DNA of 64,000 bases from Chthoniobacterales bacterium (GCA_038240025.1 JBBSED010000005.1:95134-159133); one strand, 5' to 3'; positions 14,631 to 64,000 are shown, counted from the first letter of the stretch. Made by a program: numbers and translations. The notes: generated by a model not told the origin, from the letters alone.

Positions 14631-14673
14631 GAATTCGTTAGGCAGAGTGAATCCGCGCCGGAAACCACCTCCG

Positions 14674-14979
14674 CTAATCGGTCAGCGTGTGGGTCGCGTG
14701 CGTCACCGCGGCGCCGGCCCGGAGCGCGGCGGAGACCATCGCCGTCTCGACTAATTCCGCCTCGGTCGCACCCGCTTTGCGGGCGTTCCCGGCATGGACG
14801 TCGATGCATTACGGGCACTGCGTGGTGTGCGCGACCGCGACCGCGATCAGCTCTTTGTATTTCACCGGGATCGCGCCGTCGGCGAGGGCCGCCTTGTCGA
14901 AAGCCCAGAAAGCTTTCATCACCTCGGGCGCCAGGGAGTCCATCTTCTTCAACCGGCCAAGATTGCTTTTGTTGTACAT
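14674..14979 (-). pseudogene. AhpD-like carboxymuconolactone decarboxylase family gene with an in-frame TAA inside the catalytic CxxC motif
   Basis: Hand translation gives MYNKSNLGRLKKMDSLAPEVMKAFWAFDKAALADGAIPVKYKELIAVAVAHTTQCP*CIDVHAGNARKAG...; family motif is CPYC-x3-H; the TAA (nt 14809-14811) replaces the Tyr codon. Confidence 0.55.
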
Positions 14980-15084
14980 AAATTACCCGAAACATGAGGA
15001 CCGGGAACGGCCCGGACAAGCTGATTTTGCGAAAGCCCGCGTTCGCAAAAGGCATCGTCGACAGCCAGCCGCCTCGGATTTAGA

Positions 15085-15742
15085 TCAGCGACTGCTGCTG
15101 GCCGCGGCCTCAGCCTTTGCCTTCTTGAAGTTCAGGTTCGGCTCGTAATCGGGGTGCTCGGCGCGCTCCGTTCCATCCAGTAAGCCCTCAATTGTCGGCA
15201 ACTGGACTCGCGCGAACTTCTTTCCCGCCATACTTTCGTAGAACCCGACCGAGGCCGCATCCTTCACCATCGCCGGCGTCGGTTGATCTATCGAAATAAA
15301 GAGCGCGATCTCGGCTTTCTCCCGTTCGCGTACATGATTCAGCGCACCCACGTCATCCGGCTTGATCCCGCCGCCCTTCACACTCACCACGATCTTGCGC
15401 ACTTGCCTTCCGGTCGAGGTCGCGGAAGAACTTCACCCCATCAATACCGGTATCGGCGCCTTTCTTCTTTCTCTGGGACGGCTGCGCCTCGATGAGCGAC
15501 ACCGCCCACCACTGGAATTGATACTTATCGCGCTCCGCCAGGTTGCGCGCGCCATCGAGGTCTTTTGGCGTGCCGTGGACTTCAAACTTCGCCCAGCCTT
15601 TGTAGCGATCCTTCAGCCGCTTCTCGAGCCAGCATTCGCGGCCGGGGACGAGGCGTTTGACCATATACCTCCTTAGGCATATAGATTCGCCCATGAAACT
15701 CGACGAATTGAAATCCCTGCTCCGCGCCCATCCCGAGGCCAC
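15085..15742 (-). pseudogene. Mrr-like (PD-(D/E)xK) restriction endonuclease domain gene, frameshifted
   Basis: Two overlapping ORFs in different frames (15353..15742 and 15085..15402) together give ...KKKGADTGIDGVKFFRDLD / IVVSVKGGGIKPDDV..., matching the Mrr_cat pattern. Confidence 0.45.
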
Positions 15743-16175
15743 TCCGCGTTTCTTCCTGCCGGATGGCGATGCGATTCCCGCTCATTTTCACATCACCGAG
15801 GTGGGGCATGTGGCGAAGCGTTTCGTGGATTGCGGCGGCACCGTGCACGACTCGCGCGAGACTTGTCTTCTCCAGACTTATGTCGCCGGCGCTCTCGAAC
15901 ACCGGCTCGATGCGGCGACCTTCACGAAAATCCTCGACCTCGGGAAAGCGGTCCTGCCCGGCGACGATCTCGAGGTGGAGGTGGAATACGATTGCTGCGT
16001 GACCGCGCAATATCCGATCGCGAGCGCGCAGTCCTCCGGGGCGCATCTCGATTTCCAACTCGAAGCGAGACACACCGATTGTCTCGCGAAAGAGAAGTGC
16101 GGGATCGAATCCGGCTGCTGCGGCGATGGCGACAGCGCAGAGGCCGCGGCAATGACGACTAGCTGCTGCTGTTAG
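15693..16175 (+). CDS. Hypothetical protein with Cys-rich C-terminus (CGIESGCCGDGD...SCCC), putative metal-binding
   Basis: Sits at the head of the CDF-ArsR-aquaporin-ArsC cassette; no family confidently recognised. Confidence 0.35.
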   Translation: MKLDELKSLLRAHPEATPRFFLPDGDAIPAHFHITEVGHVAKRFVDCGGTVHDSRETCLLQTYVAGALEHRLDAATFTKILDLGKAVLPGDDLEVEVEYDCCVTAQYPIASAQSSGAHLDFQLEARHTDCLAKEKCGIESGCCGDGDSAEAAAMTTSCCC

Positions 16176-16187
16176 GACCGAAGCCAC

Positions 16188-16808
16188 ATGGGATGCTCCT
16201 GCGCCAGCGAACCCGCGGACGACCGGCAGCGCCGCGTCCTGGTTCTCGCGCTCACGCTTAACGCGATCATGTTCGTGGTCGGCCTCGTCGGCGGGATCTT
16301 CGCGCAGTCGATCGGGCTGGTGGCCGATTCGCTCGACATGCTGGCCGATACGCTCGCTTACGCGATCGCGCTCTACGCGATCGGTCGCTCGCTCCTGTTC
16401 AAAGCGCAGGCCGCTCGCCGGACCGGCATCTTTCTGGTTTTCCTCGGGCTGGGAGTTTTCGTGGACGCGGGGCGGCGCGCGCTCTTCGGGGCGGCGCCGG
16501 AAAGCCTGGTGATGTTGATCATCGCGGGGATTTCGCTGGGGGTGAACTCGCTCGTTCTGTATCTGCTCACCGCCTACCAGAAGGACGAAGTGCATCTCCG
16601 CGCGACCTGGCTCTGCACCCGCGCCGATGTGGTCGCAAACGTCGCGGTGATCGCTTCCGCCGTGGTCCTGCGGGTGAGCGGCTGGCGTTTCATCGACCCT
16701 CTCGTGGGCGCGGCGATCGGCGCTTACATCGTGAAGGAGGCGTGGGAAATCCTCCGCAACGCGCGCGCGGCTCGCAGCGAGGCGGGAGCTTTGCCGGTCT
16801 TGGAATGA
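16188..16808 (+). CDS. Cation diffusion facilitator family metal efflux transporter
   Basis: Six TM helices, N-terminal His/Cys-rich tail, CzcD-like sequence. Confidence 0.7.
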   Translation: MGCSCASEPADDRQRRVLVLALTLNAIMFVVGLVGGIFAQSIGLVADSLDMLADTLAYAIALYAIGRSLLFKAQAARRTGIFLVFLGLGVFVDAGRRALFGAAPESLVMLIIAGISLGVNSLVLYLLTAYQKDEVHLRATWLCTRADVVANVAVIASAVVLRVSGWRFIDPLVGAAIGAYIVKEAWEILRNARAARSEAGALPVLE

Positions 16809-17179
16809 CGAGCCTGGTCCAAATCTACGAGTGCCTCTGCGACCGGACGCGGCTGCGCATTTTGCATCTGCTCGGGCAAGGGCCGCTCTGTGTCTGCCAT
16901 TTCCAGGAAGTGCTCGGCGAAGCGCAGGTGAAGATCTCCAAGCACCTCGCCTACCTCCGGGCTCGGGCACTGGTCGAGACGGAGCGGAGCGGGAATTGGA
17001 TCATCTATTCCTTGCCGGCCCGGCGCGCGGCGGAGCTGGAGGCAAACCTGAAGTGCCTGCAGGATTGCGCGCAGGGCGATCCGCAGTTCCGACGGGATCT
17101 GGAGAAATTGGCGACGCTGGACTTGGAGTGCTGCGGGATCGGGGAGGTGCTGGCGCGGCGGAAGGCGCGGAGCGCGTGA
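16805..17179 (+). CDS. arsR: ArsR/SmtB family metalloregulatory transcriptional repressor
   Basis: Winged HTH with ECLCDRTRLRILHLL and CVC metal site. Confidence 0.7.
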   Translation: MTSLVQIYECLCDRTRLRILHLLGQGPLCVCHFQEVLGEAQVKISKHLAYLRARALVETERSGNWIIYSLPARRAAELEANLKCLQDCAQGDPQFRRDLEKLATLDLECCGIGEVLARRKARSA

Positions 17180-17853
17180 AGAAGTATTTGGCCGAGCTCA
17201 TCGGCACCTTCTCGATGGTCTTCGCCGGCACGGGCGCGATCGTGATCGATCAGGCGAGCGGCGGTGCGGTCACGCATGTCGGCGTGGGCCTCACCTTCGG
17301 GCTCGTGGTCATGGCGATGATCTACGCGCTCGGCGATGTCTCGGGCGCGCATCTCAATCCGGCGGTGACGATCGGTTTCTGGGCGGCGCGGCGCTTGCCG
17401 GGGGCGCAAGTGGCTCCTTACATCGCGAGTCAATCCGCCGGCGCGCTGCTCGCCAGTGGCGCCTTGCGCTATCTCTTCCCGACCGATGCGACCCTGGGCG
17501 GCACCGTGCCCGCGGGCGCGGCGAGTCAGTCGTTCGTCCTCGAACTGATCCTCACGTTCATCCTCATGTTCGTGATTCTCGCCGTCTCGACCGGAGCGAA
17601 GGAACGCGGGATTACCGCCGGGATCGCGGTTGGTGGAGTGATCGCCCTGGAGGCACTTTTCGCCGGTCCGATCTGCGGGGCCTCGATGAATCCGGCGCGG
17701 TCGTTAGGCCCGGCGCTCGTCTCCGGACATTTCGGCGCGCTCTGGATTTATCTGCTCGCGCCGGTGGCCGGGGCGCTCCTCGGAGTCGCCGCCTGCCGCT
17801 GCGTGCGGGACGATGCCTTCGGCCTGGCTACATCGAAAGCCGTTAGGTCATGA
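17176..17853 (+). CDS. MIP/aquaporin family channel (aquaglyceroporin; arsenite channel in this context)
   Basis: Two NPA boxes (HLNPAVT, SMNPARS); GTG start overlapping the arsR stop. Confidence 0.7.
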   Translation: MKKYLAELIGTFSMVFAGTGAIVIDQASGGAVTHVGVGLTFGLVVMAMIYALGDVSGAHLNPAVTIGFWAARRLPGAQVAPYIASQSAGALLASGALRYLFPTDATLGGTVPAGAASQSFVLELILTFILMFVILAVSTGAKERGITAGIAVGGVIALEALFAGPICGASMNPARSLGPALVSGHFGALWIYLLAPVAGALLGVAACRCVRDDAFGLATSKAVRS

Positions 17854-18296
17854 ACAAACAAAAGGTCCTCTTCATCTGCATCCACAACAGCGCGCGCAGC
17901 CAAATGGCGGAAGCGTGGTTGAACCATATCTGCGGAGATTATTTCGAAGCCCAAAGCGCCGGCCTCGAGCCCGGAGTAATGAATCCGCTGGTGGTCGAAG
18001 CGATGCACGAAGTGGGGATCGATCTTTCGCAGAAGCGGACCCAAGGGGTCTTTGACGTCTGGAAATCCGGGCAACTCTTTGCCTACGTCGTTACCGTCTG
18101 CGACGAATCGAGTGCGGAGGGTTGTCCCATCTTTCCGGGTCACGGCAAGAAACTTCACTGGGGATTTCCCGATCCCTCCGCGCTCACCGGCAGCCGCGAG
18201 GAAAAGCTGGCGAGGATGCGCGAAATCCGCGACGACATCCGGCGGAAAGTCGAGTCGTGGTGCGACGAAGTCTGCGCCCGGCCTGCTTCTGCCTAA
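17850..18296 (+). CDS. arsC: Arsenate reductase, LMW-PTP type
   Basis: CIHNSARSQMAE P-loop; stop TAA lies inside the motif. Confidence 0.75.
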   Translation: MNKQKVLFICIHNSARSQMAEAWLNHICGDYFEAQSAGLEPGVMNPLVVEAMHEVGIDLSQKRTQGVFDVWKSGQLFAYVVTVCDESSAEGCPIFPGHGKKLHWGFPDPSALTGSREEKLARMREIRDDIRRKVESWCDEVCARPASA

Positions 18297-18305
18297 CGAA
18301 CCCGC

Positions 18306-19823
18306 TCAGCTGTGCTCTGAGACCTCGGCTTCCGCGAGGGCGGCCCGGCCATGTTTGCCTTCGATCTCGTCGATGTATTTCCGGGTCGCGGCGGGGAGCG
18401 CATGCCAGACGCGCCAGGCGAGGAGGGCGCCGATGAGGGCGAAAGGGATGAGGAACACCGGCCACCATTGCCAGCCGGCGTGGGTGACGAGATAACCCAC
18501 GCCTAACGACTGCAGGCCGCTGCCGAGATAGACGAAACCGTCGATGATCCCCGAGCAGGTGGCGGTGGCTTTGCGCCCGCCGAAATCGGCCGCCGCGGTG
18601 CCCGACATGAGGGAGTGCACGCCGGTCACGGCCGCGACGATGCCGAGCGCGGCCACGCCGACGACGAGAGGGCGGGCGAAAATGTTCAGCGCCATCACGC
18701 CCGCGAGCAGAGCCATGAGCCCGCTAAAAATCGCCACTGGCGGTCCGCGCCGGGAATGGAAGAGCTTGTCGGAGATCAAGCCGCCGGCGAAGCCGCCGAT
18801 GATCCCGAAGATGCACAGCAGCAGTCCCCAGTGCGCCACGATGCCTTCGGCGCCGATCTGTTTCACCTCGTGCCCGAAGATCGTGTACCACTGCATGATC
18901 CCGTTGCGGAGCACGCCGGCGGTCAGCTCGATGCAGGCGAACAGGAGCATCAACGGGTTCAGGAAAACCTTCTTCAGCAGGTCGAGGGTCGAATATTTCT
19001 CGTCCATCTTGCCCGTCGAAGCGTCGTCGGTCTCGAGGTAAGCGAAGCCGGCTTCCTCCGGGGTGTCCTTGATCAGGAAAACATCGAGCACCGCCCAAGC
19101 GACGAGGATCGCCGCCGGCACGAAGAAGACCGCCCAGGTCGCGCCGATCGTCGCGCCCTCGGGCAGGAAAAGGCGTCGGAGCAAAGTCTGCAGCCACGAA
19201 CCGCCAGCCGGCTCGGTGGCCTTGGTCATGTTCACGATCGCCTGTCCCCAATCGAAGGCGAAATAGACGCCGAACGAGATCAGCGTCCCGAAGATCGCGC
19301 CAAAGATGCCGCGCTCGCGCACGTGAAACCAGTTCGCTTTCACCTTGATAATCGAGACGGCGCCGTAGCTCTGGAAATACATGTTAAGCGCGTAGAGGGC
19401 GGAGAAGATGCCGACCAGCTTCACCTGCAACCGGCCGGTCAGGACCAGCCGGGTAACCACCCCGAGCGCCGTATTCGCCGCGGCCGCTCCGAGCGCCGCG
19501 ATAAGGATGCCCTTCTTCCCGCCAATCTTGTCGACGAGCGGCCCATTAACCAAAAACGAGAAGGCATAAGTGAGCGTGCCCGCGGCGAAAATGAGGCCGA
19601 AATCCTCGTTCGAAAGTCCGCGGCCGAGCGCGTTCTTCGCGACCGTGAGATTGTAGCGTCCCATGTAGAGGAACGAGTAGGTCATCCCGAGCGGGAACCA
19701 GTTCAGGAAACGCCGGCTCAGAAACCACGAGCTGTGCCGGAGGGGGTTGTTGTAAAAATAGAGCCCGACGACAACGGCCAGGCAGATGAAGACAATCGCG
19801 AGCGACATACGGGCCCGCTTCAA
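18306..19823 (-). CDS. MFS transporter, organophosphate:Pi antiporter (GlpT/UhpC-like) family
   Basis: 12 TM helices; N-terminal region matches the OPA-family pattern around RYNLTVAKNALGRGLSNEDFG. Confidence 0.55.
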   Translation of the reverse strand: MKRARMSLAIVFICLAVVVGLYFYNNPLRHSSWFLSRRFLNWFPLGMTYSFLYMGRYNLTVAKNALGRGLSNEDFGLIFAAGTLTYAFSFLVNGPLVDKIGGKKGILIAALGAAAANTALGVVTRLVLTGRLQVKLVGIFSALYALNMYFQSYGAVSIIKVKANWFHVRERGIFGAIFGTLISFGVYFAFDWGQAIVNMTKATEPAGGSWLQTLLRRLFLPEGATIGATWAVFFVPAAILVAWAVLDVFLIKDTPEEAGFAYLETDDASTGKMDEKYSTLDLLKKVFLNPLMLLFACIELTAGVLRNGIMQWYTIFGHEVKQIGAEGIVAHWGLLLCIFGIIGGFAGGLISDKLFHSRRGPPVAIFSGLMALLAGVMALNIFARPLVVGVAALGIVAAVTGVHSLMSGTAAADFGGRKATATCSGIIDGFVYLGSGLQSLGVGYLVTHAGWQWWPVFLIPFALIGALLAWRVWHALPAATRKYIDEIEGKHGRAALAEAEVSEHS

Positions 19824-20837
19824 TCGAGCATCGGCCCCTTATGGGCAACGACGCGCTGGGGGTCAAAGCCGGAAATGTTACGATCAGGTGACGCACCACG
19901 GAGGGGAAGGGACTCCTGGCTATCGCCCGCGCGCGCCTCAGAGCAGCCGAAAAGCTTGCACGGTCTGAATCATCGGCCACAACGAGAGCGCCGCGAGGAG
20001 CCCGAAGATGGCCAACTCGATCAGAAACCAGCGGGTCGATTCCCGCTGCACGAATTGGCGCTGGAGCCGCCACCAGGCGGGGGCGGAGAAAGTCGTCGCC
20101 GTGGGATCTTTCGTGACGGTGAGAGTGAGAGAAGGATTAAGCATAGGAAGGGTAATAGTTAAGATAACTACCCATCCTTTAGCGCGAGCTGGCAGAGTGT
20201 CAGGTTACGAACCGTGAAGATCGCGTGACCTCTGGGTGACGCCGTTCCCCCTGCCGGCCCCTCGCTTATGCGTCGTCGGCACCACCGTCCGGCCTGACGA
20301 CGGCAGCGGTGGCACGGTCCAAATTCCCTTCATCTATCGCGACGGCCGGATGTTCGATCTGGAAACGTTAGTCGATGAGTCTGGAGCGACGCTGTGGCCA
20401 TTACGCGCGCCAAGTACCACCGTGGAGTCCTTCACGTGACAGCAACGCCTCCGCCGTGTTGAAAGTTTACGTAACTTCGACAGGCTCGCTCATTGGCGCA
20501 CTGAGCCTTAAGGCGCGTGTCTAGAGGCAAGTTCTCCTTGGCCACTAACTCGGTGAATGTTACGGAAAAAGCGACTTGGGAAGTCGTGCCATGAAATCCA
20601 TGACTCTCTCCGGACTTGCATTGGAGCGTGTCATGCACTTTGGCGCCGCCGCTTGACGGAAGACAGGCATCTTTGCCTGTTCTGGCTGACGGGCTTCCAG
20701 CTGTCGCTTCAAAGCGAAAGGAAAAAAGATTCCTATCTCCGCGGCGCATCCGTTTGCAGCATCGAAGTGCTGCCACTCTCTCGTGCAGCGTAACCTCAAC
20801 TTGTGAGACGCGGGAGTCGCTTCGCTCTCCGCACTTT

Positions 20838-20908
20838 CACCTACACTTACACCTGACTTTTCGCAGGTGTTCCAGGGAGTGTAAGTGCAAGTGTAGGTGC
20901 AAGTCAGG
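20838..20908. repeat. Solo inverted-repeat element built from ACACCTAC/ACACTTAC units (same family flanks the 38.8-39.2 kb four-helix-bundle gene)
   Basis: CACCTACACTTACACCTGACTT ... GTGTAAGTGCAAGTGTAGGTGCAAGTCAGG with a ~20-nt spacer. Confidence 0.5.
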
Positions 20909-20910
20909 AC

Positions 20911-20944
20911 GGCAAAACGCCCCGGGCCTGTCCTGACCCGGGGC
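20911..20944 (-). terminator. Rho-independent terminator of the 20988..22544 gene
   Basis: GCCCCGGG-10 nt loop-CCCGGGGC followed on the minus strand by GUUUUGCC. Confidence 0.6.
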
Positions 20945-20987
20945 GCTGCTGCCTAACGCCTAACCAATGCGCGCGCCTGCGCCGAAG

Positions 20988-22544: not shown

Positions 22545-22686
22545 GGAGTTGGTTTGATGGTTGGTTGCGACGACGAACCCGCCGTCTGGAGAGCAAGTTG
22601 GCGGACGTTTGTGGCGTCCAAGTGAAGCGGACGTGACGTTCCGGTGAATTCCGCCAGCGAGAGGGCGCGCGCCGCCCTCGCCACGC

Positions 22687-23562: not shown

Positions 23563-23688
23563 GATGTGAGCCTGGCCCAGCGTCGCAACTTGGCGCGCAT
23601 TGAGGAGGTAAAGGAATTTCGTGCGCGCGTAAACCGGTCTGTTTCGCTGGACATTTCACTGTGGTTAAGAACTAATCATCGGCCTGTC

Positions 23689-56042: not shown

Positions 56043-56673
56043 TTTTTGAAACGAAGCGTTCTTCAGTGCCCTGCCAGAGTCGCGCGATGTTCGAACGATG
56101 TCTCCAGATCACAACCCCGGCGATAAGAATCGAAAAGGGCAGCAGAGCCGGTCCGCTGATCACTTTCATTCGCAGGTAGAGGAGAACGAAGAGGGGTAAA
56201 GCTGCGGCCGCAGTGATGGAGGCAATCGACACGTAGCGGGTGATCTTAAAGATCACGAGCCAGACAAGGAAAACGGAAATGACGGCTACGGGCATGAGGC
56301 CGAGGAGCACGCCGGCGGACGTTGCGACACCTTTTCCGCCTCGGAAACGTAACCAGACGGGAAACGTGTGCCCCAGAATGCAGGCGAGGCCGCCTACGAT
56401 CCCAACGATCTCCGGGTGACTGATCTGGGGGGATCTTGCGGCCAGGAGGAAGGCGATTTCCACGGCAACGTAGCCTTTGAGCGCGTCTAGGAAAAAAACG
56501 AGGAAGCCCCAACTCTTGCCCAAAACCCGCAAGACGTTAGTCGCGCCGATGTTGCCGCTGCCATGCTGGCGAATGTCAATTCCGCGAGCCCGCGAGATGA
56601 GGAGACCGTTCGGGCACGAACCTAAAAAGTAACCGATGATCGCCGCCAGAACAAAACAGATGAGAATTTGCAA
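56032..56673 (-). CDS. plsY: Glycerol-3-phosphate acyltransferase PlsY
   Basis: Family-typical membrane protein with GSGNIGATN. Confidence 0.8.
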   Translation of the reverse strand: MQILICFVLAAIIGYFLGSCPNGLLISRARGIDIRQHGSGNIGATNVLRVLGKSWGFLVFFLDALKGYVAVEIAFLLAARSPQISHPEIVGIVGGLACILGHTFPVWLRFRGGKGVATSAGVLLGLMPVAVISVFLVWLVIFKITRYVSIASITAAAALPLFVLLYLRMKVISGPALLPFSILIAGVVIWRHRSNIARLWQGTEERFVSKNDQ

Positions 56674-56684
56674 AAGTCTATTAA

Positions 56685-58553
56685 TCAGTTGGTTATACTA
56701 TGCTTTTTGATCCACATAGATAAAATTCCTAGATCGCTAGGAGTGACTCCGCTGATCCGTCCGGCCTGCCCGATGTTGGTCGGCTGTGAGATAGCCAGTT
56801 TCTGCCGAGCCTCATTTCGCAGGCCCGCGACGGCTGCATAATCGAATTCATTCGGGATCAGTTGGGATTGAGCCTTCCTCATCAGATCGACCTGATCGCG
56901 TTCCCGTCGGATGTATCCCTCGTACTTGAGGTCGGTGGTTACGAGCTCCCAGAATTCCAAGGGTATATTGTGCCGAATTCCGTCCGGAATGGACGACGCT
57001 TGAAACTCGGTTTGCTTCATGAGGTGGCTGAGCAACTGGCCTTCCAAACGAGTGGTTTCGGCCAGGGTTCTTGCGCTCCGCAAAGTCTGTTCTTTATCGG
57101 AGAGGAGCATTCTTCGTCTTTCGTCGACCAGTCCGATTTCGGCTGCCTTCGGCGTAAGGCGAAGATCAGCGTTGTCCTGCCTCAAGAGCAGGCGGTGCTC
57201 CGCACGGCTGGTGAACATCCGATAAGGTTCGAGGGTTCCCTTGGTGACCAGATCGTCGATCATCACGCCGATGTAAGCCTCGCTCCGGTCTAGAATGAAC
57301 TCCCGACCGGAGGAGAGTTTGAGCGCGGCGTTTGTCCCTGCCATTAATCCTTGGGCCGCTGCTTCCTCGTATCCCGAAGTTCCGTTGATTTGGCCCGCAA
57401 AGTAGAGGCCGCCAACCAGCTTGGTTTCCAGGGTAGGCCGGAGCTGCGTCGGTGGGAAGTAGTCGTATTCGACCGCGTAGCCTGGCCTCATTATTTCGGC
57501 CTTTCGCAAGCCAGGAATCGAACGAATGAAGCGGAGTTGGACATCGTAGGGGAGGCTGGTCGAGACGCCGTTCACATAAAATTCTTCAGTTTGGCGCCCC
57601 TCAGGCTCCAGAAAAATCTGATGCTGCGCGCGGTCTGGGAATTTCACCACTTTGTCTTCGATCGAGGGACAGTAACGCGGCCCCTTACCTTCGATCTTAC
57701 CGCTGTAGAGGGCAGATTGATGAAGATTATCGTGAATAATTTCGTGGGTCTCCGGCGTGGTGTTTGTAATCCAGCACGGAAGCTGTTCCACATGGAACGC
57801 ACCGTTCACGACCGTGTTGAGCGTGAGAAACTCTTCCGACGCATCGAACGCTTGCAAAGGCGGTAAAAAGCTAAAGCGACACGGAATTTGGTCGCCATCT
57901 TGGCGTTGGCAAAGGTCGAAATTGATGGACTTGGCGTTCAACCGGCAGGGCGTTCCTGTCTTGAAGCGTCCCACTTCAAAACCTATTCCGCGAAGACTCT
58001 CACTAAGCGGGGAACTCGCGTCTGCCATTCGGCCGCCCTTCAATTGTCGATTGCCGAGATGCAGCAAGCCTCGAAGGAAGGTGCCGGCCGTGAGAACAAT
58101 GCTGCGACCGAAAAACTGGACACCCAAGTCCGTTTCAACGCCCCTCGCGACGTCATCAGCGAGGATAACCCGAGCTACTCCTCCTTGTTTCACGTCTAGA
58201 TTTCTCGCTTGTTCTAGAACGTATTTGAGGCGGAACTGATAGGCTTTTTTATCGCATTGGACTCTCGGAGCTCGAACGCTGGGGCCTTTTGAACGATTGA
58301 GAAGGCGAAATTGGATGCCGGTAGCGTCAGCGTTGACACCCATAATTCCACCGAGAGCATCGATCTCGCGCACCATGTGTCCCTTAGCTAATCCTCCAAT
58401 AGCCGGATTGCACGACATCTGACCCAACGTATCAAGGTTCTGACTTAGAAGCAGGGTTTTTGCCCCCAACCGCGACGCGGCTAAGGCGGCCTCCGCGCCA
58501 GCATGTCCTCCGCCCACAGCGATTACGTCGTAATGTGTCCCTGACGAATGCAT
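56685..58553 (-). CDS. mnmG: tRNA uridine-5-carboxymethylaminomethyl modification enzyme MnmG (GidA)
   Basis: FAD-binding N-terminus ([14 protein letters not shown]) and full-length MnmG. Confidence 0.9.
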
Positions 58554-58559
58554 ATGGAA

Positions 58560-58952
58560 TTACTTCGGACTCTCCAAGATGCCGGCATTCGGTAGCGGTA
58601 GCAGGTCAGAGAGCTGTCGCTCAAGCGGCAATCGGGAATTTCCTTCACTGAAGATTCGGAGGCGGGGGGAAAACTCGGCAAGAACCTGACGGCACGCTCC
58701 GCACGGGACGATCGCAGTCGGGGTAGCGGCCACAATCGCCAAGGCGGTGAACTTCGTTTCGCCGGCTGCAATTGCGCTGAAAACTGCAGATCGCTCCGCA
58801 CAGATCGTAAGACCAAACGAGATATTTTCGACATTACAGCCCGTGAAGATAGCTCCTGAATCGGAAAGAATGGCCGCTCCCACTTTGAAGCTAGAGTAGG
58901 GCGCGTAAGCGAGCTCCCGCACCCTCCACGCATGATCCAATAATTCACGCAC
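58560..58952 (-). CDS. cdd: Cytidine deaminase
   Basis: Zn motifs CAERSA and PCGACRQ. Confidence 0.8.
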   Translation of the reverse strand: MRELLDHAWRVRELAYAPYSSFKVGAAILSDSGAIFTGCNVENISFGLTICAERSAVFSAIAAGETKFTALAIVAATPTAIVPCGACRQVLAEFSPRLRIFSEGNSRLPLERQLSDLLPLPNAGILESPK

Positions 58953-58955
58953 GAG

Positions 58956-59738
58956 TTATTTGCCTGCCCATGCCGGCCTCGGTTTCAACTTGTCAGACAT
59001 TGGAACCATCTTATTAGCCGCCTCGGTTTTTGCGGCAGCTTCTTCGGCCTCCTTCAGGAGGCGAAGAGATATTCGCCCCAACGCAACCAGAACGACTGCC
59101 GAGAGCAGGAGTCCACCTCCCCATACCCAATATTCGAACAACCGAGGATGCGATTTCCCGCGAATTAAATTCAACCCCAGTTGACCCAGAGTGCCAATAT
59201 AGGCGTAAAGGAAAAGACCGGGTGCCTGACCAATGGCGACCCAGAGCATACATGTCCGGAATCGCATGGAGGTGAGGCCATAGAGGTAGTTCAGGAGGCT
59301 CGTCGGGAATAAGGGGTGGAGCTGACTAAGCAGGATTATCTTCCAACCCTCTCGCTCCACTGCAGGCTCCAACGCCTCCAACGTGGCATTCCGCATGAGT
59401 TTCCTTCTTAGCCAGTTTCTTCCTAGCCAACGACTTATATAGAATGAAATCGCAGCGCCGGTCACGTTCCCTACGAGGATGATCAAGAATCCCCACCAAA
59501 GCCCGAAGAAGAATCCCCCGCCGATACTAAGGAGACCGCCCGGTAGCAACAGAACATTGCAACAAGCATATAAGAGCGGATACCAGATGGCGCTCCAAGC
59601 GCCGAGCCGCATCACTTTTTGCTGGATCGCCGAAATCCAGTCGACGAGGGGAAAATAATGTCCGGCAACGGCGAACAGAGCGGCAACCAGGACAAGCCCG
59701 CCGACCTGAACAAAAACCGCGCGGCGAACTTTCGACAT
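58956..59738 (-). CDS. DedA/TVP38/TMEM64 (VTT-domain) family membrane protein
   Basis: Family-typical TM pattern; internal Met start at 59738. Confidence 0.55.
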   Translation of the reverse strand: MSKVRRAVFVQVGGLVLVAALFAVAGHYFPLVDWISAIQQKVMRLGAWSAIWYPLLYACCNVLLLPGGLLSIGGGFFFGLWWGFLIILVGNVTGAAISFYISRWLGRNWLRRKLMRNATLEALEPAVEREGWKIILLSQLHPLFPTSLLNYLYGLTSMRFRTCMLWVAIGQAPGLFLYAYIGTLGQLGLNLIRGKSHPRLFEYWVWGGGLLLSAVVLVALGRISLRLLKEAEEAAAKTEAANKMVPMSDKLKPRPAWAGK

Positions 59739-59838
59739 CACGTTAATTTGCCAACAACCCTGGTCCAGCGCAAACACTGAGCAGCTTGCAGCGGCCGGGA
59801 AGAGTGGCTTTTTAGCCGCGGCAGACGCATAGCCGAAT

Positions 59839-59905
59839 CCCGACATAGCTCAGTTGGTAGAGCAGCTGATAGCAGTTTGACCGTTTCGACCCGCTACGAC
59901 TATCG
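59839..59905 (+). other. tRNA-like fragment: acceptor 5' strand plus perfect D-arm (TAGCTCAGTTGGTAGAGCA) without a recognisable anticodon/T-arm/3' acceptor
   Basis: Hand folding fails beyond position ~26; followed by a degenerate motif copy TATCGTTAGC. Confidence 0.35.
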
Positions 59906-60020: not shown

Positions 60021-61790
60021 TCAGCGAGCCATCGCCACTACGAGCGCGTGACGCAAGGCTGCGCGCGAGAGTGGTTTCCCCAGAACGAGGTCGATTCCTT
60101 CGGGCGCGATTCCGGCCGAGAAGGAGTCGTCCCCATACCCGGTCAGCAGGATAACAGGAGTCTCGGGCGCGAGCTTTTTAACTTCCAACGCGAGTTGCTC
60201 GCCGTTCATTTCCGGCATGATCTGATCGGTGATGACGAGGTCGAAATTGCCCGCGCGGAATTTTTCAAGAGCCCCGCGGCCGCCCTCCGCCGTCTCAACG
60301 GAATGCATGTCGATCTGCAGGTATTCGCAAAGGAGCTGGCAGAGGACGGGCTGATCGTCCACCATTAGGATATGGAGTGGGCGGTGAAGTGATCCCGCCG
60401 CCGCGATCGTGGTGTCAGTGGGGCCTTCGGCCGAAGGAAAACGCAATTTAAACGTTGTCCCGCGGCCGGGTGCGCTCTCGACCTCGACCGAGCCGGCGTG
60501 CCGCTGTACGATGCCGAAGACCATGGAGAGGCCGAGGCCGGTGCCTTTTTCGCCCTTGGTGGTGAAGAAGGGCTCGAGGCAACGCTCGCGCACTTCGTCG
60601 CTCATGCCGGTGCCGGTGTCGCTGATCTCGACGACCACCTCGTTTTCTTTCACGAGCGTGCGCAGGGTTATGGTGCCGCCTTCGGGCATGGCGTCGACGG
60701 CGTTGAAAATTAGGTTAGTCAAGGCCTCGCGCAATGCCGCTGGATCGCCCGAGATAAAGCCGATCTCACCGAAATCCGCCTCGGCGAAAATCGGTCGGCC
60801 GGCGGCGCGCGATTGGGTTTCCCAGCGCGGCTTGGTCAGAAAGACGGCCTGCTCGAGCAGCTCGTTGAAGTCGACTGGCAGGTGCACTTCATCTTCCTCA
60901 TCCGAGCGATAGAATTCGCGCAGACGTCCGACAATCTTGGAGGCGTCTTTGGCGGCGGTGAGAATGGTATTGAGCGGTTGGGCTGCCCGTTCCTTGGTCA
61001 GGCCGTTGTCGGAATCGGTGAGCAGGATTTCGCTAAAGCCCATGATCACGCTGAGCGCGTTATTGAAGTCGTGCGCGATCCCGCCGGCCATCGTGCCGAG
61101 GGCGGCGAGCCGTTCCTGTTGCGCCACCTGGCGCTGGGTCTCTTTCAATTCCGCAAGCGCCTTCTCGAGATCGATGGTGCGCTTGCGTACGTGCATTTCG
61201 AGGGTGGCGTTTTGTTCCTGAATCTTGAGATGCGCCGCTCGGGACTGGAGCAGATTGCCGATCCGCAGGAGCACTTCGAGTTGATCGAAAGGTTTGGTGA
61301 GAAAATCAGTCGCGCCGGCGGCGAGCGCCCTGCGCTTCGTCTCGCTCGTGATGTCCGCCGTGAGCACGACGATCGGGAGGTAATCATCGCTGCCGTGGTG
61401 GTCGCGCAGTTGCTCGAGCACCGCCAGGCCGTTGAAATGCGGCATCATCCAATCGGTTAGCACAAGATCGGGCTCGTGTTGTCGGAAGCTGGCGAGCGCC
61501 TCGCGCGAATCGGTGGTGCTGATGAGGTGATGGCAGTTCGCGCGTTTCAGAATCCGCTCCAGCAGGCGCACGTTCGATAACTCGTCGTCGATGATCAGAA
61601 TCTTCGCCGCCGCGATCAAAGGTTGGTCGAGCATTTCCAGGGCTGCGGTCAAGGCGCCAGCCGAAGGCGCGCTTTGAGGTGCGGAGCCACCCGGCTGGTG
61701 CGGTCGTCGTGACAAGGGAGAAAACAGCTTCGTTGCGGGGTAGGAGTCGGCGCTGGTTGCACTCATAGTCGTTATTATGCTGAGGAGCAA
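60021..61790 (-). CDS. Hybrid sensor histidine kinase: REC - HisKA - HATPase - REC
   Basis: Receiver motifs (ILIIDDE, Asp in LVLTDWMMP), H-box GIAHDFNNAL, GTGLGLSMV, C-terminal receiver; alternative start at 61634. Confidence 0.75.
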   Translation of the reverse strand: MLLSIITTMSATSADSYPATKLFSPLSRRPHQPGGSAPQSAPSAGALTAALEMLDQPLIAAAKILIIDDELSNVRLLERILKRANCHHLISTTDSREALASFRQHEPDLVLTDWMMPHFNGLAVLEQLRDHHGSDDYLPIVVLTADITSETKRRALAAGATDFLTKPFDQLEVLLRIGNLLQSRAAHLKIQEQNATLEMHVRKRTIDLEKALAELKETQRQVAQQERLAALGTMAGGIAHDFNNALSVIMGFSEILLTDSDNGLTKERAAQPLNTILTAAKDASKIVGRLREFYRSDEEDEVHLPVDFNELLEQAVFLTKPRWETQSRAAGRPIFAEADFGEIGFISGDPAALREALTNLIFNAVDAMPEGGTITLRTLVKENEVVVEISDTGTGMSDEVRERCLEPFFTTKGEKGTGLGLSMVFGIVQRHAGSVEVESAPGRGTTFKLRFPSAEGPTDTTIAAAGSLHRPLHILMVDDQPVLCQLLCEYLQIDMHSVETAEGGRGALEKFRAGNFDLVITDQIMPEMNGEQLALEVKKLAPETPVILLTGYGDDSFSAGIAPEGIDLVLGKPLSRAALRHALVVAMAR

Positions 61791-63445
61791 AGCTGGGCCA
61801 CGGCTTCGCGGAGTTCGTTTTGCGGAATTGGCTTGCTTAAGATGAGATCAACGCCCGCTGGCTTTTCCTTCGGATCCAGCTTCGGATCGGTGAAGCCGGT
61901 GAGCAGCAGGATCGGCTGGGACGCGCGCATAGCTTTGAGCGCCTCTGCTAATTGCGAGCCGTTCATGCCCGGCATGGCGTGATCGGTGATAACGAGGTCG
62001 AACTCGCTGGCTTCAAATCGCTCGACCGCTTCCTGGCCGCTCGCCGCAGTGACGACCTCATGGCCATCGGCGGCGAGATATTGCCGCACCACATCGCGCG
62101 GGACCGAGTCGTCATCGACCACGAGCACGCGCAGTGAGCAGGGTGCCGCGATCTCGCTCGCGACCGCGGGCGCGAACGTTTTTACCTGGCTCGGAAAGCT
62201 GATGCGAAAAGTGGTGCCGCACCCCGGCTCGCTCTCGATTTCCAACTCGGCATCGTGGCGCTGTATGACCCCGAACGTCGTCGAGAGCCCCAGACCGGTC
62301 CCGCGCTCGCCCTTCGTCGAGAAGAATGGCTCGAGGCAGCGGGTGCGCACCTCTTCCGTCATCCCCGTGCCGGTGTCGCTGATTTCAAAGCCGACCCGCT
62401 CCTGCAGGCGATAGCTCCGCAGGGTAATCGTCCCGCTGGCAGGCATGGCATCGACCGCGTTGAAGATCAGGTTCGTGAAGACCTCGCGCAGCTCCGCCGG
62501 ATTGCCCGGGATCGTCGGCACCTTTTCGAGATCCATCTCCACCGCGATCGTCCGGCCGGCGAGCAGCGCCTGGTCTTTCCATTTCGGCTGGGTGAGCGAA
62601 ACCGCCTGCTCTATCACCTGGTTGAGCGCGACCGATTCAAACACGTCCGTCTCTTCGCGCGGCCGGTAGAATTCACGCAGCCGCCCCACGACGTGCGCGG
62701 CGTCGCGGCCCGCCGTGTTCATCGTCTGGAGGTAACCGAGCACGGCTGGCTTGTCGTCCAGCATGGCCGGGTCATTCAGGAGCAGCTCGGTGTAACCGAC
62801 CACCGACATGAGCGCGTTATTGAAATCGTGCACCACGCCGCCGGCCATTTCGCCGAAGGCGCGGAGTCGTTCCTGCTGCACCATGCGGTGCTGGGTTTCC
62901 TTTAATTCTTCAAGCGCGCGCGAGAGCTCCTGCGTGCGCTCGGTCACCTTCTGGTCGAGGAGCTGGTTCTGGTTTTGCGCCGCGAGGTGAAGAAAGCGCG
63001 ACTGCAAAAGATTGCGGATGCGCATGAAAATCTCGGAGGCATCGAAGGGCTTATGCAGGAAATCCGTGGCGCCGGCGGCGAGCGCCTTGCGTTTGGTGGG
63101 CGGCGCAATGTCCGCGGTGAGGACGAGGATCGGCAGATAGCCATCACTTGGGATCACGCCCGCAAGTTGTTGCATGACCTGAAAGCCATCCAGGTGCGGC
63201 ATCATCAAATCGAGGATGATCAGGTCCGGCTTGAACTCCTCCAGGAGGGCCAAGGCTTCGCGCGAGTCGGTCGTGTGGCGCAGCGTGCTGTAGCCGATCC
63301 GGCCCAGCATATTGTTGAGCAGCGCGATGTTCGAGACGTTGTCGTCCACGATCAAAATGCGCGCCTCTTTCGGGTTCATCGTGATCATGAAAACGTCGCG
63401 TCGCCCCGGCCGCTTAGGCGCGCGCCGGGGTCTGGTCCAAAACAA
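61775..63445 (-). CDS. Hybrid sensor histidine kinase, tandem paralog of 60021..61790
   Basis: Same four-domain architecture, H-box GVVHDFNNAL. Confidence 0.75.
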   Translation of the reverse strand: MFWTRPRRAPKRPGRRDVFMITMNPKEARILIVDDNVSNIALLNNMLGRIGYSTLRHTTDSREALALLEEFKPDLIILDLMMPHLDGFQVMQQLAGVIPSDGYLPILVLTADIAPPTKRKALAAGATDFLHKPFDASEIFMRIRNLLQSRFLHLAAQNQNQLLDQKVTERTQELSRALEELKETQHRMVQQERLRAFGEMAGGVVHDFNNALMSVVGYTELLLNDPAMLDDKPAVLGYLQTMNTAGRDAAHVVGRLREFYRPREETDVFESVALNQVIEQAVSLTQPKWKDQALLAGRTIAVEMDLEKVPTIPGNPAELREVFTNLIFNAVDAMPASGTITLRSYRLQERVGFEISDTGTGMTEEVRTRCLEPFFSTKGERGTGLGLSTTFGVIQRHDAELEIESEPGCGTTFRISFPSQVKTFAPAVASEIAAPCSLRVLVVDDDSVPRDVVRQYLAADGHEVVTAASGQEAVERFEASEFDLVITDHAMPGMNGSQLAEALKAMRASQPILLLTGFTDPKLDPKEKPAGVDLILSKPIPQNELREAVAQLCSSA

Positions 63446-63806
63446 TTTCGATCGAGCTAACGAGCGCCGCGGTGTCGATCGGTTTGGGCAGGAAGAGATC
63501 CCCGCCTCGTTTGCTCAGCGCCTGCCCGCCTTCATTTTGCGAGAGAAGCGAAGTGAAGAAGATGATGTGCAAATCTCCGAGCGACGTATCGGCGCGAAGC
63601 TGTGCCGCGACGGCGCCGCCATCCATGCCTGGCATGTCGACATCGAGCAGCACCAGATGAGGTCGAAACTCGCGCGCGCAGGCCAGCGCCTGGCGGGAAC
63701 GATTTTCGACTCTCACCTCGTAGAGGCGTGTTTTTTCCAATGCGAGGCCGACGAGCCGCGAGAGCCCGATGTCGTCGTCCACAATTAAAATGCGAGGTAA
63801 GTCCAT
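63414..63806 (-). CDS. Single-domain response regulator (CheY-like receiver)
   Basis: ILIVDDD ... LVLLDVDMPGMDG ... LPKP. Confidence 0.75.
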   Translation of the reverse strand: MDLPRILIVDDDIGLSRLVGLALEKTRLYEVRVENRSRQALACAREFRPHLVLLDVDMPGMDGGAVAAQLRADTSLGDLHIIFFTSLLSQNEGGQALSKRGGDLFLPKPIDTAALVSSIEIVLDQTPARA

Positions 63807-64000
63807 AAGTTTAGGGTGCGTTCTGCGGGATCCTGGCCGGGGTCATGAATGTCGCCGATCGTCGAAGTGCTGGTGGTCGATCCCGCGATGGTCGCGATCG
63901 TTCTCGAAGGAATTATTTTGTTTCATGAGTCGTGAGGCTCGAGCACGGGAGGATGCACCACGGATCAGAGCTTGCTCCGTGCCAACAGCGCGGAGCGGGT

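Follow-up and report, generated by a model that had tools for sequence, protein, structure and literature searches.

This study revealed that a nine-base word, GCCTAACGA/TCGTTAGGC, is clearly maintained at the DNA level in an uncultured and very abundant soil group of Verrucomicrobia, and that most gaps between its copies fall in conserved genes that are gapped alike in related genomes. Because conserved genes in related species show the same gaps, the gaps do not mark recent acquisitions, and the proposal of a first-pass annotation that motif-poor segments are recently acquired, island-like DNA is mostly unsupported. The window (the whole 64-kb stretch of DNA that was analyzed) derives from a Udaeobacter-like Chthoniobacterales (Verrucomicrobiota) bacterium, a member of a soil group; its features are listed in the table.

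The motif that the first-pass annotation had left unnamed was identified through k-mer counting as this exact 9-mer, which occurs in 47 exact copies in 64 kb, compared with 0.31 ± 0.51 expected from dinucleotide-preserving shuffles. The over-representation is approximately 150-fold and the density about 1 copy per kb; all 27 one-mismatch variants together yielded 32 hits, and the flanks of the window copies exhibited no conservation beyond the 9 bases. Coding sequence holds 30 of the 47 copies, in all four stop-free frames and equally in sense (15) and antisense (15) orientation, and the other 17 are located at stop codons or in intergenic DNA, compared with 14% of the sequence being non-coding (P = 1.6e-4). 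Both strands of the word contain stop codons, and a copy often provides the stop of a gene. Among the peptide contexts in the window that are able to encode it, 30 of 53 do so (0/5 in 56–64 kb versus 30/48 elsewhere), and 16% of all CTA, TTA, and AGG codons fall within copies. The only inverted pair in the 64 kb (9451–9474) folds as a hairpin (−20.5 kcal/mol, z = −2.6).

Six related loci were used for comparison, and the related sequence available amounted to about 150 kb. The results revealed that 28 of 36 window copies were conserved exactly in relatives, compared with 13–40% for control 9-mers. Exact conservation was observed for 7/7 copies in L001 (controls, 30%), 11/14 in L163 (26%), 3/4 in L164 (17%), 6/10 in L082 (13%), and 1/1 in L081 (40%), and the gpsA copy occupies the same codon position even in genomes with only 62–67% GpsA identity. 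The copies are old and retained in position; since their positions are inherited, the gaps between them are not independent draws. The word is present in L001, L163, L164, L082, and L167, and many Udaeobacter-like loci contain it sparsely; within the PstS set, no other phyla carried it.

Table. Features of the 64-kb window (positions counted from its first nucleotide)
Feature	Position	Strand	Basis or remark
GCCTAACGA/TCGTTAGGC copies	702..55861	28 +, 19 -	exact match
Indel relative to sister genome L001, holding a second phoU	9447..10756	phoU 10071-10754 -	L001 contiguous here
pstB-pstA-pstC-pstS and truncated CMD/AhpD gene	10757..15026	-	core; 87% nt identity to L001
Hypervariable hotspot, pstS to Kir channel gene	15027..22594		three close genomes, differing gene sets
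Kir channel, 359-aa protein, cNMP-C39-ABC exporter, HlyD, sigma-54 activator	22595..30087		conserved locus
Small K-rich peptide genes with double-glycine-type leaders, and duplicated fragments	30100..32950		ORFs
Motif-rich stretch, 29 copies at 1.3/kb	33894..55861		exact word
plsY-mnmG-cdd-VTT housekeeping block	56032..59846	-	GC 54-56%, GC3 0.60-0.67, no motif copy
Two hybrid response-regulator/histidine kinases and a response regulator	60021..63806	-	domains

Exact copies leave gaps from 9466 to 12485, from 14635 to 17701, and from 18501 to 24894; the next copies are at 27890/27900 and 31865, and none follows 55853. The gap locations of the first-pass annotation, including the copy-free tail, were right for the exact 9-mer. 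The single copy that it counted in 18.6–24.7 kb was probably the 8-mer variant at 20951, with 0 exact copies in that interval, and its density of approximately 1.6/kb over 33.9–55.9 kb was too high, with exact copies amounting to 1.27/kb and the inclusion of 8-mer cores giving approximately 1.55/kb. Gap significance was tested against uniform placement of 47 points. The largest gap (8148 nt, 55.9–64.0 kb) yielded P = 0.078 and the second (6393 nt, 18.5–24.9 kb) P = 0.030; six gaps of at least 3 kb were observed, with 5.0 expected (P = 0.35), and the variance/mean ratio of copies in 4-kb bins was 1.6 (P = 0.065). The 2–3 kb gaps at 9.5–11.6 kb (P = 0.21) and 14.65–17.7 kb (P = 0.11) are therefore at chance level, and the copy shortage in the 24.9–31.8 kb stretch was not significant (P = 0.12).

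In the left part of the window, pstB-pstA is core DNA, and the three motif copies of the pst block are all kept in L001. The adjoining CMD/AhpD gene is truncated (model positions 1–38 of 84), and an intact 101-aa gene is found in L001 and L163. The indel preceding this block starts with the inverted motif pair. Loss of the second phoU in L001 is likely because the PhoU adjoining pstB in L009 best matches the second copy of the window, and for part of the DNA confined to the window (phoU2, MFS), loss in this sister genome is the better explanation.

The stretch between pstS and the Kir channel gene is variable, as the first-pass annotation had held for part of it. Its genes comprise endonuclease-like fragments, DUF6428, CDF, arsR, aquaporin, arsC, MFS, and PhoX, along with 1.1 kb of non-coding DNA. 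The truncated CMD/AhpD, CDF, ArsR, MIP aquaporin, and LMW-phosphatase ArsC genes that the annotation had named were found, DUF6428 is additionally present, and the proposed Mrr corresponds to only a weak restriction-endonuclease-like match (E = 8e-4). In L001, the hotspot is without CDF, aquaporin, and MFS, and its remaining genes are 72–83% identical at the nucleotide level; in L163, it contains CMD and MFS only. The shared genes DUF6428, arsC, and PhoX are deeply divergent alleles, with 71–72% amino acid identity compared with approximately 90% in the flanks and with 4-fold sites near saturation. The hotspot is typical in composition and carries three motif copies (17701, 18291, and 18501; 0.40/kb; P(≤3 copies) = 0.20), and the accessory aquaporin, arsC, and MFS genes each carry copies.

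The next locus does contain a cNMP-C39-ABC exporter with HlyD, which confirms the peptide-export content proposed earlier. This locus is syntenic in L163 and L164 (80–88% nucleotide identity) and in L001 up to the end of that locus (w27476), and the motif sites of the exporter, 24894 and the pair 27890/27900, are matched at two places in L163/L164 (6997/6994 and 10003). HlyD identity falls smoothly from 91% to 66% across the clade. The small peptide genes that follow lie in locally rearranged DNA with one motif copy (31865) and a tetranucleotide z of 3.0, which is alignable only in part to L163/L164; its duplicated fragments derive from the NlpC/P60, PolX, and sigma-54 activator genes.

The motif-rich stretch begins with genes for PolX, DDAH-like and ArgZ-like proteins, a liv transporter, cyclophilin, and a CN hydrolase and continues with a c-di-AMP riboswitch, a DNA methylase, thiG, amylase, purN, and gpsA. 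It is syntenic with L163 at 35.0–41.8 kb and with L082/L167 at 50.4–56 kb, with many copies at identical positions. A sharp step at the gpsA|plsY junction (56032–56042) leads into the plsY-mnmG-cdd-VTT block, in which VTT denotes the VTT/DedA protein gene; the DNA at 55.9–59.9 kb has 55% GC and a tetranucleotide z of 7.1. The gpsA-thiG side carries 1.5–2.5 copies/kb where it is covered (the window, L082, and L167), and the step recurs in loci covering both sides (L082 and L167; L081 only partly). The plsY-VTT order, low GC3, and motif absence are also found in L081, L082, L167, and L168; the order is kept in every Udaeobacter-like relative checked, with cdd confirmed where genes were called, and also in low-GC relatives. 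Four related loci exhibit both the low GC3 and the sharp step, and in three of them the synonymous sites of mnmG have reached saturation. Lineages that have each retained a GC3 of about 0.6 are saturated relative to one another at the 4-fold sites of mnmG and cdd; the GC3 of the block is therefore at equilibrium, and the observations point to a long-standing local state and not to a recent, un-ameliorated import. MnmG is vertically inherited: in a neighbor-joining tree (without support values), the window protein and P0001 are sister to P0004 and P0002. An old in-situ swap of plsY-VTT for a low-GC allele may have occurred before the window and L081 lineages split.

The two-component cluster at the right end has normal GC3 (0.70–0.81) and no motif copy, and the tetranucleotide z of 59.9–64 kb is 0.4. 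Its RR-HK2-HK1 order is kept in two relatives, L165 and L166, and HK2 identity grades from 91, 83, and 82% down to 60% across Chthoniobacterales. The close relative L165 (85.5% nucleotide identity) has 0 copies in 12.84 kb, comprising the kinase cluster and 9.6 kb past the window end, and L166 has 1 copy in 11.5 kb. The joint probability of this desert in the window and L165 is about 1e-4 to 2e-6. The right-end desert is convincing only when such data from relatives are added; a desert shared between genomes, as opposed to chance spacing, is then indicated. The HK1|VTT junction (approximately 59.9 kb) is not common to L082 or L168, which implies rearrangement there, and the kinase cluster may have been acquired long ago, before the sampled lineages split.

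We consider it likely that GCCTAACGA is a lineage-specific word of locally inherited density and that its poor stretches combine chance gaps, one hotspot, and conserved deserts. The word is kept at the DNA level in the Udaeobacter-like Chthoniobacterales clade and its copies are old; each locus would inherit its local density, so that the motif-poor stretches would form a three-part mixture. The first part would consist of ordinary 2–3 kb chance gaps within core operons (pstBA and the ars cluster) and the second of the one real variable hotspot, the density of which is not demonstrably below that of the neighboring core. The third would comprise deserts that are conserved and vertically inherited, namely the exporter locus, plsY-mnmG-cdd-VTT, and the two-component cluster, in which the word would never have built up in any sampled lineage. 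Motif absence is thus no evidence of recent acquisition.

Over-representation, positional conservation, conserved deserts, synteny, and composition are direct observations, and an uptake or recombination function is inferred from them. We tentatively entertain the idea that the word acts like a DNA uptake sequence and spreads and persists through biased uptake or recombination between related genomes, in which case its density would reflect the share of a block in exchange and not foreignness. The 64-kb window contains no competence genes, and a literature search on competence in Udaeobacter found nothing.

It is rather doubtful that the deserts are recombination-cold blocks, with the word promoting uptake or homologous exchange between related genomes. 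Blocks rich in the motif would then be homogenized between lineages and raised in GC3 through GC-biased conversion or through introgression of high-GC, motif-rich DNA, and motif-free blocks would retain an ancestral low GC3 and diverge. Such a process is consistent with the excess 4-fold identity between the window and L082, which is 0.32 in thiG-gpsA and 0.07 in plsY-VTT and drops gene by gene toward mnmG/cdd, although L082 and L167 represent the same locus and are not independent replicates. Sites within 100 nt of a copy tend to show the highest synonymous identity, a trend that is clear for L163 and L164, and the lowest values lie beyond 1–2 kb in L001, L081, and L082. Over all gene/relative pairs, divergence is slightly greater in genes lacking a copy nearby (rho = 0.31, P = 0.027). 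Across 71 genes of relatives, GC3 is higher where the motif is present (rho = 0.49, P = 1e-5), but within the window GC3 and motif content are unrelated at the gene level outside plsY-VTT (rho = 0.05), and GC3 is at a normal, high level in both the kinase desert and the motif-poor exporter locus. Density increases from approximately 0.1/kb in loci of 52–57.5% GC to 0.4–0.6/kb in loci of 57.5–64% GC, although the locus-level correlation is not significant (rho = 0.15). In low-GC relatives, GC3 is near 0.6 on either side of the gpsA|plsY boundary, and a link between GC content and recombination has been reported in bacteria (PMC4866539). The full form of this scenario, in which the word is an uptake or recombination signal, the copy map is a map of gene flow and not of foreign DNA, and the deserts are exchange-cold, low in GC3, and diverging to synonymous saturation, we regard as unlikely.

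Less probable still is the model of the first-pass annotation, in which a genome-signature word marks as recent islands those segments that have yet to gain copies. The variable gene content and pseudogene fragments at 15.0–22.6 kb, the low density and deep allelic divergence of the hotspot and PhoX, the slightly greater divergence of genes lacking a copy nearby, the atypical 55.9–59.9 kb, the unoccupied peptide contexts in 56–64 kb, and the use of DUS-poor regions as markers of ICEs in Neisseria (PMC7371117) agree with it. However, clearly atypical composition is confined to 55.9–59.9 kb, apart from the deviating sub-part at 30.1–32.95 kb, and that low-GC block consists of plsY, mnmG, cdd, and VTT/DedA, with a clade-wide order and with low GC3 and motif absence shared by synonymously saturated lineages. 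The first four motif-poor segments have tetranucleotide z values of 0.6, −1.0, 0.5, and −0.6, similar to motif-bearing DNA; the annotation had itself named composition indistinguishable from the core as evidence against its reading, and this is what four of the five segments exhibit. Density is 0.72/kb in the core, defined as DNA syntenic in every relative spanning the site (37.5 kb), compared with 0.52/kb over the 11.5 kb that are variable or confined to the window, a nonsignificant difference in a small sample (P about 0.3), and accessory genes carry copies. Absence from the same site in close relatives was observed only for parts of 15.0–22.6 kb and small pieces. The comparison with relatives upholds the hotspot, with its divergent alleles, as variable DNA, and the remaining deserts are conserved: pstBA, Kir-exporter-sigma54, plsY-VTT, and the RR-HK2-HK1 cluster are present in relatives. 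Pfam scans of the called genes revealed no integrase, transposase, or relaxase domains, and no tRNA lies at a segment border, the only tRNA being tRNA-Leu at 3712–3794. No foreign phylogenetic affinity was found for MnmG (which groups with its nearest relatives), HlyD, or HK2; their best database matches (the source's own HK2 aside) are at 90–91%, followed by a falling gradient. Across the five segments, composition, occurrence in relatives, the scans for mobility genes, and the affinity of these three proteins spoke against genomic-island status, and the island reading is largely refuted for 10.8–14.6, 22.6–30.1, and 56.0–59.85 kb.

That copies are placed purely by chance and no gap is meaningful is very improbable: the number of long gaps, the largest gap, the dispersion, and the three shorter segments fit such placement, but the second gap, the continuation of the right-end desert in L165 and L166 (joint P < 1e-3), the recurring gpsA|plsY step, and the inherited copy positions do not.

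Among known systems, Chi and KOPS/AIMS are likewise over-represented short words that can be core-enriched, but they are 5–8 nt long and strongly co-oriented with replication. A polar word of this type was rejected for the 9-nt GCCTAACGA on its 28:19 strand split (binomial P = 0.24) over a cumulative GC skew that rises almost throughout the window, with replication direction inferred from the skew alone. A REP/MITE-type repeat was rejected on the lack of conservation beyond the 9 bases and the number of copies in coding sequence. HIP1 of cyanobacteria (GCGATCGC) is an abundant, lineage-specific word in coding sequence that is conserved between relatives and the function of which is debated; it is palindromic and is associated with the site of a methyltransferase. 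The word described here, GCCTAACGA, resembles HIP1 in its abundance, lineage specificity, and conservation but is not palindromic.

GC-biased gene conversion and heterogeneity in GC linked to recombination are known in bacteria (Lassalle et al. 2015, cited in PMC4866539). A local difference in recombination would predict neighboring blocks of vertical descent that differ stably in GC3, as seen here. A link to a specific sequence word is not known to have been described, and the present evidence comprises one boundary locus and weak correlations. At this one sharp boundary, motif density, GC3, and synonymous divergence shift together in several deeply diverged lineages, and if the pattern were genome-wide, it would make gene flow and the evolution of GC content directly accessible in unculturable organisms.

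Atypical DUS distribution has been used to detect islands and ICEs in Neisseria (Hughes-Games et al. 2020, PMC7371117), and the first-pass annotation followed the same logic, by which a word-free stretch is candidate foreign DNA. Gaps in a signature word work in Neisseria, whereas the longest stretches lacking the word in this window consist of conserved, syntenic DNA, part of it housekeeping, and relatives are likewise without the word. Because these stretches are conserved and without mobility genes, the word-gap method gives false positives in the window and would mislabel conserved housekeeping and signaling genes as islands. Motif deserts should accordingly be compared with relatives before acquisitions are called.

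The closest likeness is to the DUS of Neisseriaceae (GCCGTCTGAA core) and the USS of Pasteurellaceae (AAGTGCGGT core). Similar to these, GCCTAACGA is a short, exact, non-palindromic word that occurs in both orientations and within genes, has a surplus at gene ends and a hairpin-forming inverted pair, and is common to related species with conserved positions. Its imprint is also visible in codons and peptides, a feature that has been described for USS/DUS (PMC2817400). It differs in having one inverted pair per 64 kb and no extended flanking consensus, in carrying stops on both strands and often supplying the stop, and in its host, an uncultured soil member of another phylum, the Verrucomicrobiota, known from metagenome assemblies only. 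On sequence grounds, GCCTAACGA looks like a putative DNA-uptake-sequence-like word. If the uptake or recombination reading is true, it would represent the first uptake-sequence-like system outside Proteobacteria, operating in a bacterial group that ranks among the most abundant in soil and visibly affecting how base composition evolves.

Counting of k-mers revealed a single outlier in the window, the 9-mer GCCTAACGA (reverse complement TCGTTAGGC). Its exact copies number 47 in 64 kb (28 on the plus strand and 19 on the minus strand), compared with 0.31 +/- 0.51 expected from dinucleotide-preserving shuffles. It is strictly a 9-mer: the flanking positions are not conserved, and all 27 of its one-mismatch variants together occur only 32 times. 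The stop triplet TAA occurs on one of its strands and TAG on the opposite one, and the word often serves as a gene's stop codon; 17 of the 47 copies sit at stop codons or in intergenic DNA, compared with a non-coding share of only 14% of the window (P = 1.6e-4). Of the 30 copies inside genes, 15 are sense and 15 antisense, and together they use all four stop-free frames. Literature searches for the sequence of the word yielded primers and unrelated oligonucleotides only, and those on competence or uptake sequences in Udaeobacter or Verrucomicrobia yielded nothing. Pfam scans detected no integrase or transposase among the called genes of the window.

Features of the window, with side observations (L001 is a sister genome; L082, L163, and L164 are loci from related genomes)
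Feature	Position	Strand	Content or observation
Phosphate block	0.7-14.6 kb		tgt fusion, PPK2, CYTH, phoB/phoR, phoU, DUF47, PHO4 transporter, His-phosphatase, second phoU, pstBACS
Inverted motif pair	9451-9474		Hairpin with 9-bp stem directly downstream of the gene for the His-phosphatase; the first copy contains that gene's TAA stop
Indel versus L001	from 9447-9474		1.3 kb; begins exactly at the inverted motif pair
Gene fragments	14.8-15.7 kb		Truncated CMD/AhpD gene (model positions 1-38 of 84); weak endonuclease-like fragments
Arsenic and transport genes	15.7-23.6 kb		DUF6428, CDF, ArsR, MIP aquaporin, LMW-phosphatase ArsC, MFS transporter, PhoX, Kir-type channel
Stretch between MFS and PhoX genes	19824-20987		1.1 kb without convincing ORF; may be a decayed gene; missing from L001, L163, and L164
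Adjacent near-copies at end of that stretch	20951, 20958		GCCTAACGC and GCCTAACCA, respectively
Exporter locus	23.7-30.1 kb		359-aa protein, cNMP-C39-ABC exporter, HlyD, sigma-54 activator
Peptide region	30.2-32.6 kb		Small K-rich peptides with GG-type leaders; duplicated gene fragments
K-rich peptide ORFs	30256-32575		Two families; a 56-59 aa ORF at the matching place in L163 and L164
Family 1	30504-30677, 32118-32291, C-terminus of 32018-32575		Double-glycine-type leader DLKPxKDAKGG
Family 2	30256-30498, 31930-32112		Motif ...LDDLIPKxNVxGGRxLLFGATDI
Local duplication or rearrangement	30792-33333		NlpC/P60 intact at 30792-31316; second-copy fragments at 32615-33333
Duplicated PolX 5' end	31423-31662
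Sigma-54 activator fragment	31586-31705
Central genes	33-56 kb		PolX, DDAH-like, ArgZ-like, liv transporter, cyclophilin, CN hydrolase, c-di-AMP riboswitch, HD protein, N6/N4 DNA methylase, thiG, amylase, cytidylyltransferase, purN, gpsA
23S-rRNA-IVP family gene (four-helix bundle)	38789-39190	-	Between two liv ABC ATPase genes; missing from the corresponding liv site in L163
c-di-AMP riboswitch	47322-47477	+	56.6 bits; upstream of the SPFH/Band-7 gene
Word copy	47503		Between the aptamer and the SPFH/Band-7 start codon
SPFH/Band-7 gene	47578-48879		433 aa
N6/N4 DNA methylase gene	49950-50753	-	No restriction gene recognised alongside; at least partly conserved beside thiG in L082
Word copies in methylase gene	50021, 50096, 50416		Three in ~400 nt, among the window's densest clusters
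Right-end genes	56-63.8 kb		plsY, mnmG, cdd, VTT/DedA protein; two hybrid kinases and a response regulator

In a PstS-based genome scan, the window grouped in Verrucomicrobiota, with Chthoniobacterales of the Candidatus Udaeobacter type. In this set, the sister genome L001 (PstS identity 92%, 62% GC) carried 11 copies in 21 kb, several relatives at 54-56% GC carried 1-4 copies each, and other phyla carried none. Further related loci were obtained through homologue searches with MnmG (L081, 90% identity; L082, 74%; L167 and L168, 75%), HlyD (L163, 85%; L164, 81%), and the hybrid kinase HK2 (L165, 91%; L166, 83%), and the closely related sequence compared totalled ~150 kb. The 80 GpsA loci from soil metagenomes (JGI), all with <=67% identity, served for deep conservation and not for close synteny. 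When loci were pooled by GC, motif density was ~0.1/kb at 52-57.5%, 0.42/kb at 57.5-60%, and 0.59/kb at 60-64%; nevertheless, despite this approximately five-fold spread, GC and density were not significantly related at the level of individual loci (rho 0.15).

We examined the conservation of the window copies wherever relatives could be aligned. Copies were exactly conserved in 7 of 7 cases in L001, 11 of 14 in L163, 3 of 4 in L164, 6 of 10 in L082, and 1 of 1 in L081, compared with 30, 26, 17, 13, and 40% of control 9-mers in the same respective alignments. The copy inside gpsA encodes Leu-Thr by using the rare codon CTA, and it occupies the identical codon position in many genomes with GpsA identity of only 62-67%. 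Among the window proteins, 30 of the 53 peptide contexts able to encode the word by synonymous choice were occupied (57%), and 16% of all CTA, TTA, and AGG codons fell within copies, in a genome whose GC3 is near 0.8. Codon usage is visibly shaped by the word, and peptide usage probably is also. The aligned positions indicate that the copies are old. Positional conservation together with context and codon occupancy therefore shows that the word is maintained at the DNA level and that each genome inherits its local density instead of building it up anew.

The first-pass annotation had interpreted the motif-poor segments at 9.5-11.6, 14.65-17.7, 18.6-24.7, 24.9-31.8, and 55.9-64.0 kb as recent acquisitions. 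The gaps between exact copies were located correctly (9466 to 12485, 14635 to 17701, 18501 to 24894, 24894 to 27890 and 27900 to 31865, and no copy after 55853), but the density across 33.9-55.9 kb was 1.27/kb for the exact word and ~1.55/kb when 8-mer cores were counted, not about 1.6/kb. Under uniform placement of 47 points along the window, P was 0.078 for the largest gap (8148 nt) and 0.030 for the next largest (6393 nt); six gaps of >=3 kb were seen versus 5.0 expected, and the variance/mean ratio of copies in 4-kb bins was 1.6 (P = 0.065). The segments at 9.5-11.6, 14.65-17.7, and 24.9-31.8 kb were each unremarkable (P = 0.21, 0.11, and 0.12). Judged from the window alone, heterogeneity is therefore only borderline.

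Composition was compared with that of random equal-length pieces from the motif-bearing parts of the window. The tetranucleotide z scores of the first four segments were 0.6, -1.0, 0.5, and -0.6, and that of 59.9-64 kb was 0.4; the only outliers were 55.9-59.9 kb (GC 55%, z 7.1) and 30.1-32.95 kb (z 3.0). Most of the motif-poor segments are thus typical of the window (z -1.0 to 0.6), which argues against their being recent acquisitions.

Synteny also separated the segments: pstBA, the exporter locus, plsY-VTT, and the kinase cluster (response regulator RR, HK2, and HK1) were conserved, whereas 15027-22594 was variable. The pstB-pstA segment (9.5-11.6 kb) is core DNA with 87% nucleotide identity to L001, from which only 9447-10756, carrying the second phoU, is absent. 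Loss of this gene in L001 is likelier because the pstB-adjacent PhoU of the related locus L009 best matches the second copy. Comparison of the loci indicates that 15027-22594 is a real variable hotspot. In L001, its endonuclease-like fragments are replaced by different DNA, and CDF, aquaporin, and MFS are missing; the genes in common (DUF6428, arsR, arsC, and PhoX) show only 72-83% nucleotide identity. In L163, the pstS-to-Kir interval contains only CMD and MFS. Because arsC and aquaporin also adjoin pstS in the more distant Udaeobacter-like relatives L003-L007 (window counterpart 14564-18296), the linkage of arsenic detoxification and phosphate uptake is itself an old clade feature, although the particular genes present vary.

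Within the hotspot there are 3 copies in 7.6 kb (P(<=3) = 0.20), and the adjoining, fully conserved 22.6-30.1 kb likewise has 3 in 7.5 kb. DNA common to every relative spanning it carried 27 copies in 37.5 kb (0.72/kb) versus 6 in 11.5 kb (0.52/kb) for variable and window-only DNA, a nonsignificant difference (P about 0.3). Recent acquisition thus applies at most to the hotspot at 15.0-22.6 kb, where depletion is not significant, and fails for the statistically strongest desert (55.9-64 kb) and the exporter locus, both of which are conserved in relatives.

The Kir channel, 359-aa protein, exporter, HlyD, and sigma-54 activator genes show synteny with L163 and L164, as they do with L001 up to window coordinate 27476, where that locus ends. 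L163 and L164 share the same two motif sites with the window, and HlyD identity declines smoothly across the clade from 91% to 66%. Within this segment, only the part at 30.1-32.95 kb shows rearrangement and odd composition. Neither Rfam nor tRNA scans accounted for the atypical 30-33 kb stretch, which contains small peptide genes and duplicated gene fragments. The K-rich peptides are probably substrates of the adjacent locus encoding the cNMP-gated C39-ABC exporter, HlyD, and sigma-54 activator.

L082, L167, and all six low-GC relatives checked share the order VTT-mnmG-plsY-gpsA-purN (cdd was confirmed only where genes were called), and the order RR-HK2-HK1 was conserved in L165 and L166. L165, with 85.5% nucleotide identity over the kinase cluster, had no copy in 12.84 kb, 9.6 kb of it past the window end, and L166 had one copy in 11.5 kb; joint probabilities for the right-end desert with these relatives were 1e-4 to 2e-6. 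None of the 5 motif-compatible peptide contexts in 56-64 kb was occupied, versus 30 of 48 elsewhere (P = 0.012), and the word's absence is therefore not a coding constraint. No alternative 'dialect' or other enriched word and no enrichment of the motif's sub-words was detected in the deserts (window 55.9-64 kb, L165, and the left half of L082). These comparisons indicate that the deserts are real yet conserved among relatives.

The plsY-mnmG-cdd-VTT genes had GC3 of 0.53-0.67 and no copy in the window, L081, L082, L167, and L168. On the gpsA-purN-amylase-thiG side, GC3 was 0.67-0.89, with 1.5-2.5 copies/kb where covered (window, L082, and L167), often at identical positions. The step in both measures is sharp at the gpsA-plsY junction (window overlap 56032-56042), where GC3 rises from about 0.6 to 0.73-0.83, and recurs in the other loci covering both sides, L082 (12511) and L167 (3980); in low-GC relatives, GC3 is near 0.6 on both sides. 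Recent import of the mnmG block from a low-GC Udaeobacter was rejected: the genome of the best MnmG match (L081, 90%) shows the same GC step, the 75% matches group with the window, and identity to ordinary low-GC members is only 61-71%. In a neighbour-joining tree without support values, MnmG clustered with its nearest relatives. Fourfold sites of mnmG and cdd were saturated between the window and L082 or L167 (excess identity 0.0-0.03, scored against codon-family-specific expectations). This saturation, together with the GC3 near 0.6 kept there by all of these lineages, points to a local equilibrium in plsY-VTT GC3 and not to imported DNA that has yet to be ameliorated. Neighbouring genes, both inherited vertically, thus seem to differ in their equilibrium GC3.

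We further investigated the relationship between the word and divergence. Synonymous identity to relatives tended to peak within 100 nt of a copy and to reach its minimum past 1-2 kb. Excess fourfold identity to L082 was 0.40 in thiG, 0.23 in gpsA, and 0.03 in mnmG, and genes lacking a copy nearby were more divergent across 50 gene/relative pairs (rho 0.31, P = 0.027); L082 and L167 are one locus and hence not separate replicates in this pattern. Across six related loci, motif-bearing genes had higher GC3 (rho 0.49, P = 1e-5). These findings fit, albeit weakly, a role of the word in promoting exchange among relatives, in which motif-rich blocks would have been recently exchanged and deserts would be exchange-cold. 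The normal GC3 of the kinase desert and the exporter locus argues against this role, and GC3 was unrelated to motif density in window genes outside the plsY-VTT block.

Regarding known systems, a Chi/KOPS-type identity was rejected on the 28:19 strand split, and a REP-type identity was rejected because conservation does not extend past 9 bases and 30 of 47 copies are intragenic. The reasoning of the first-pass annotation has a known precedent in the DUS-gap method for finding ICEs (PMC7371117). The DNA uptake sequence is the closest known analogue of the word, which has four of its six defining features.
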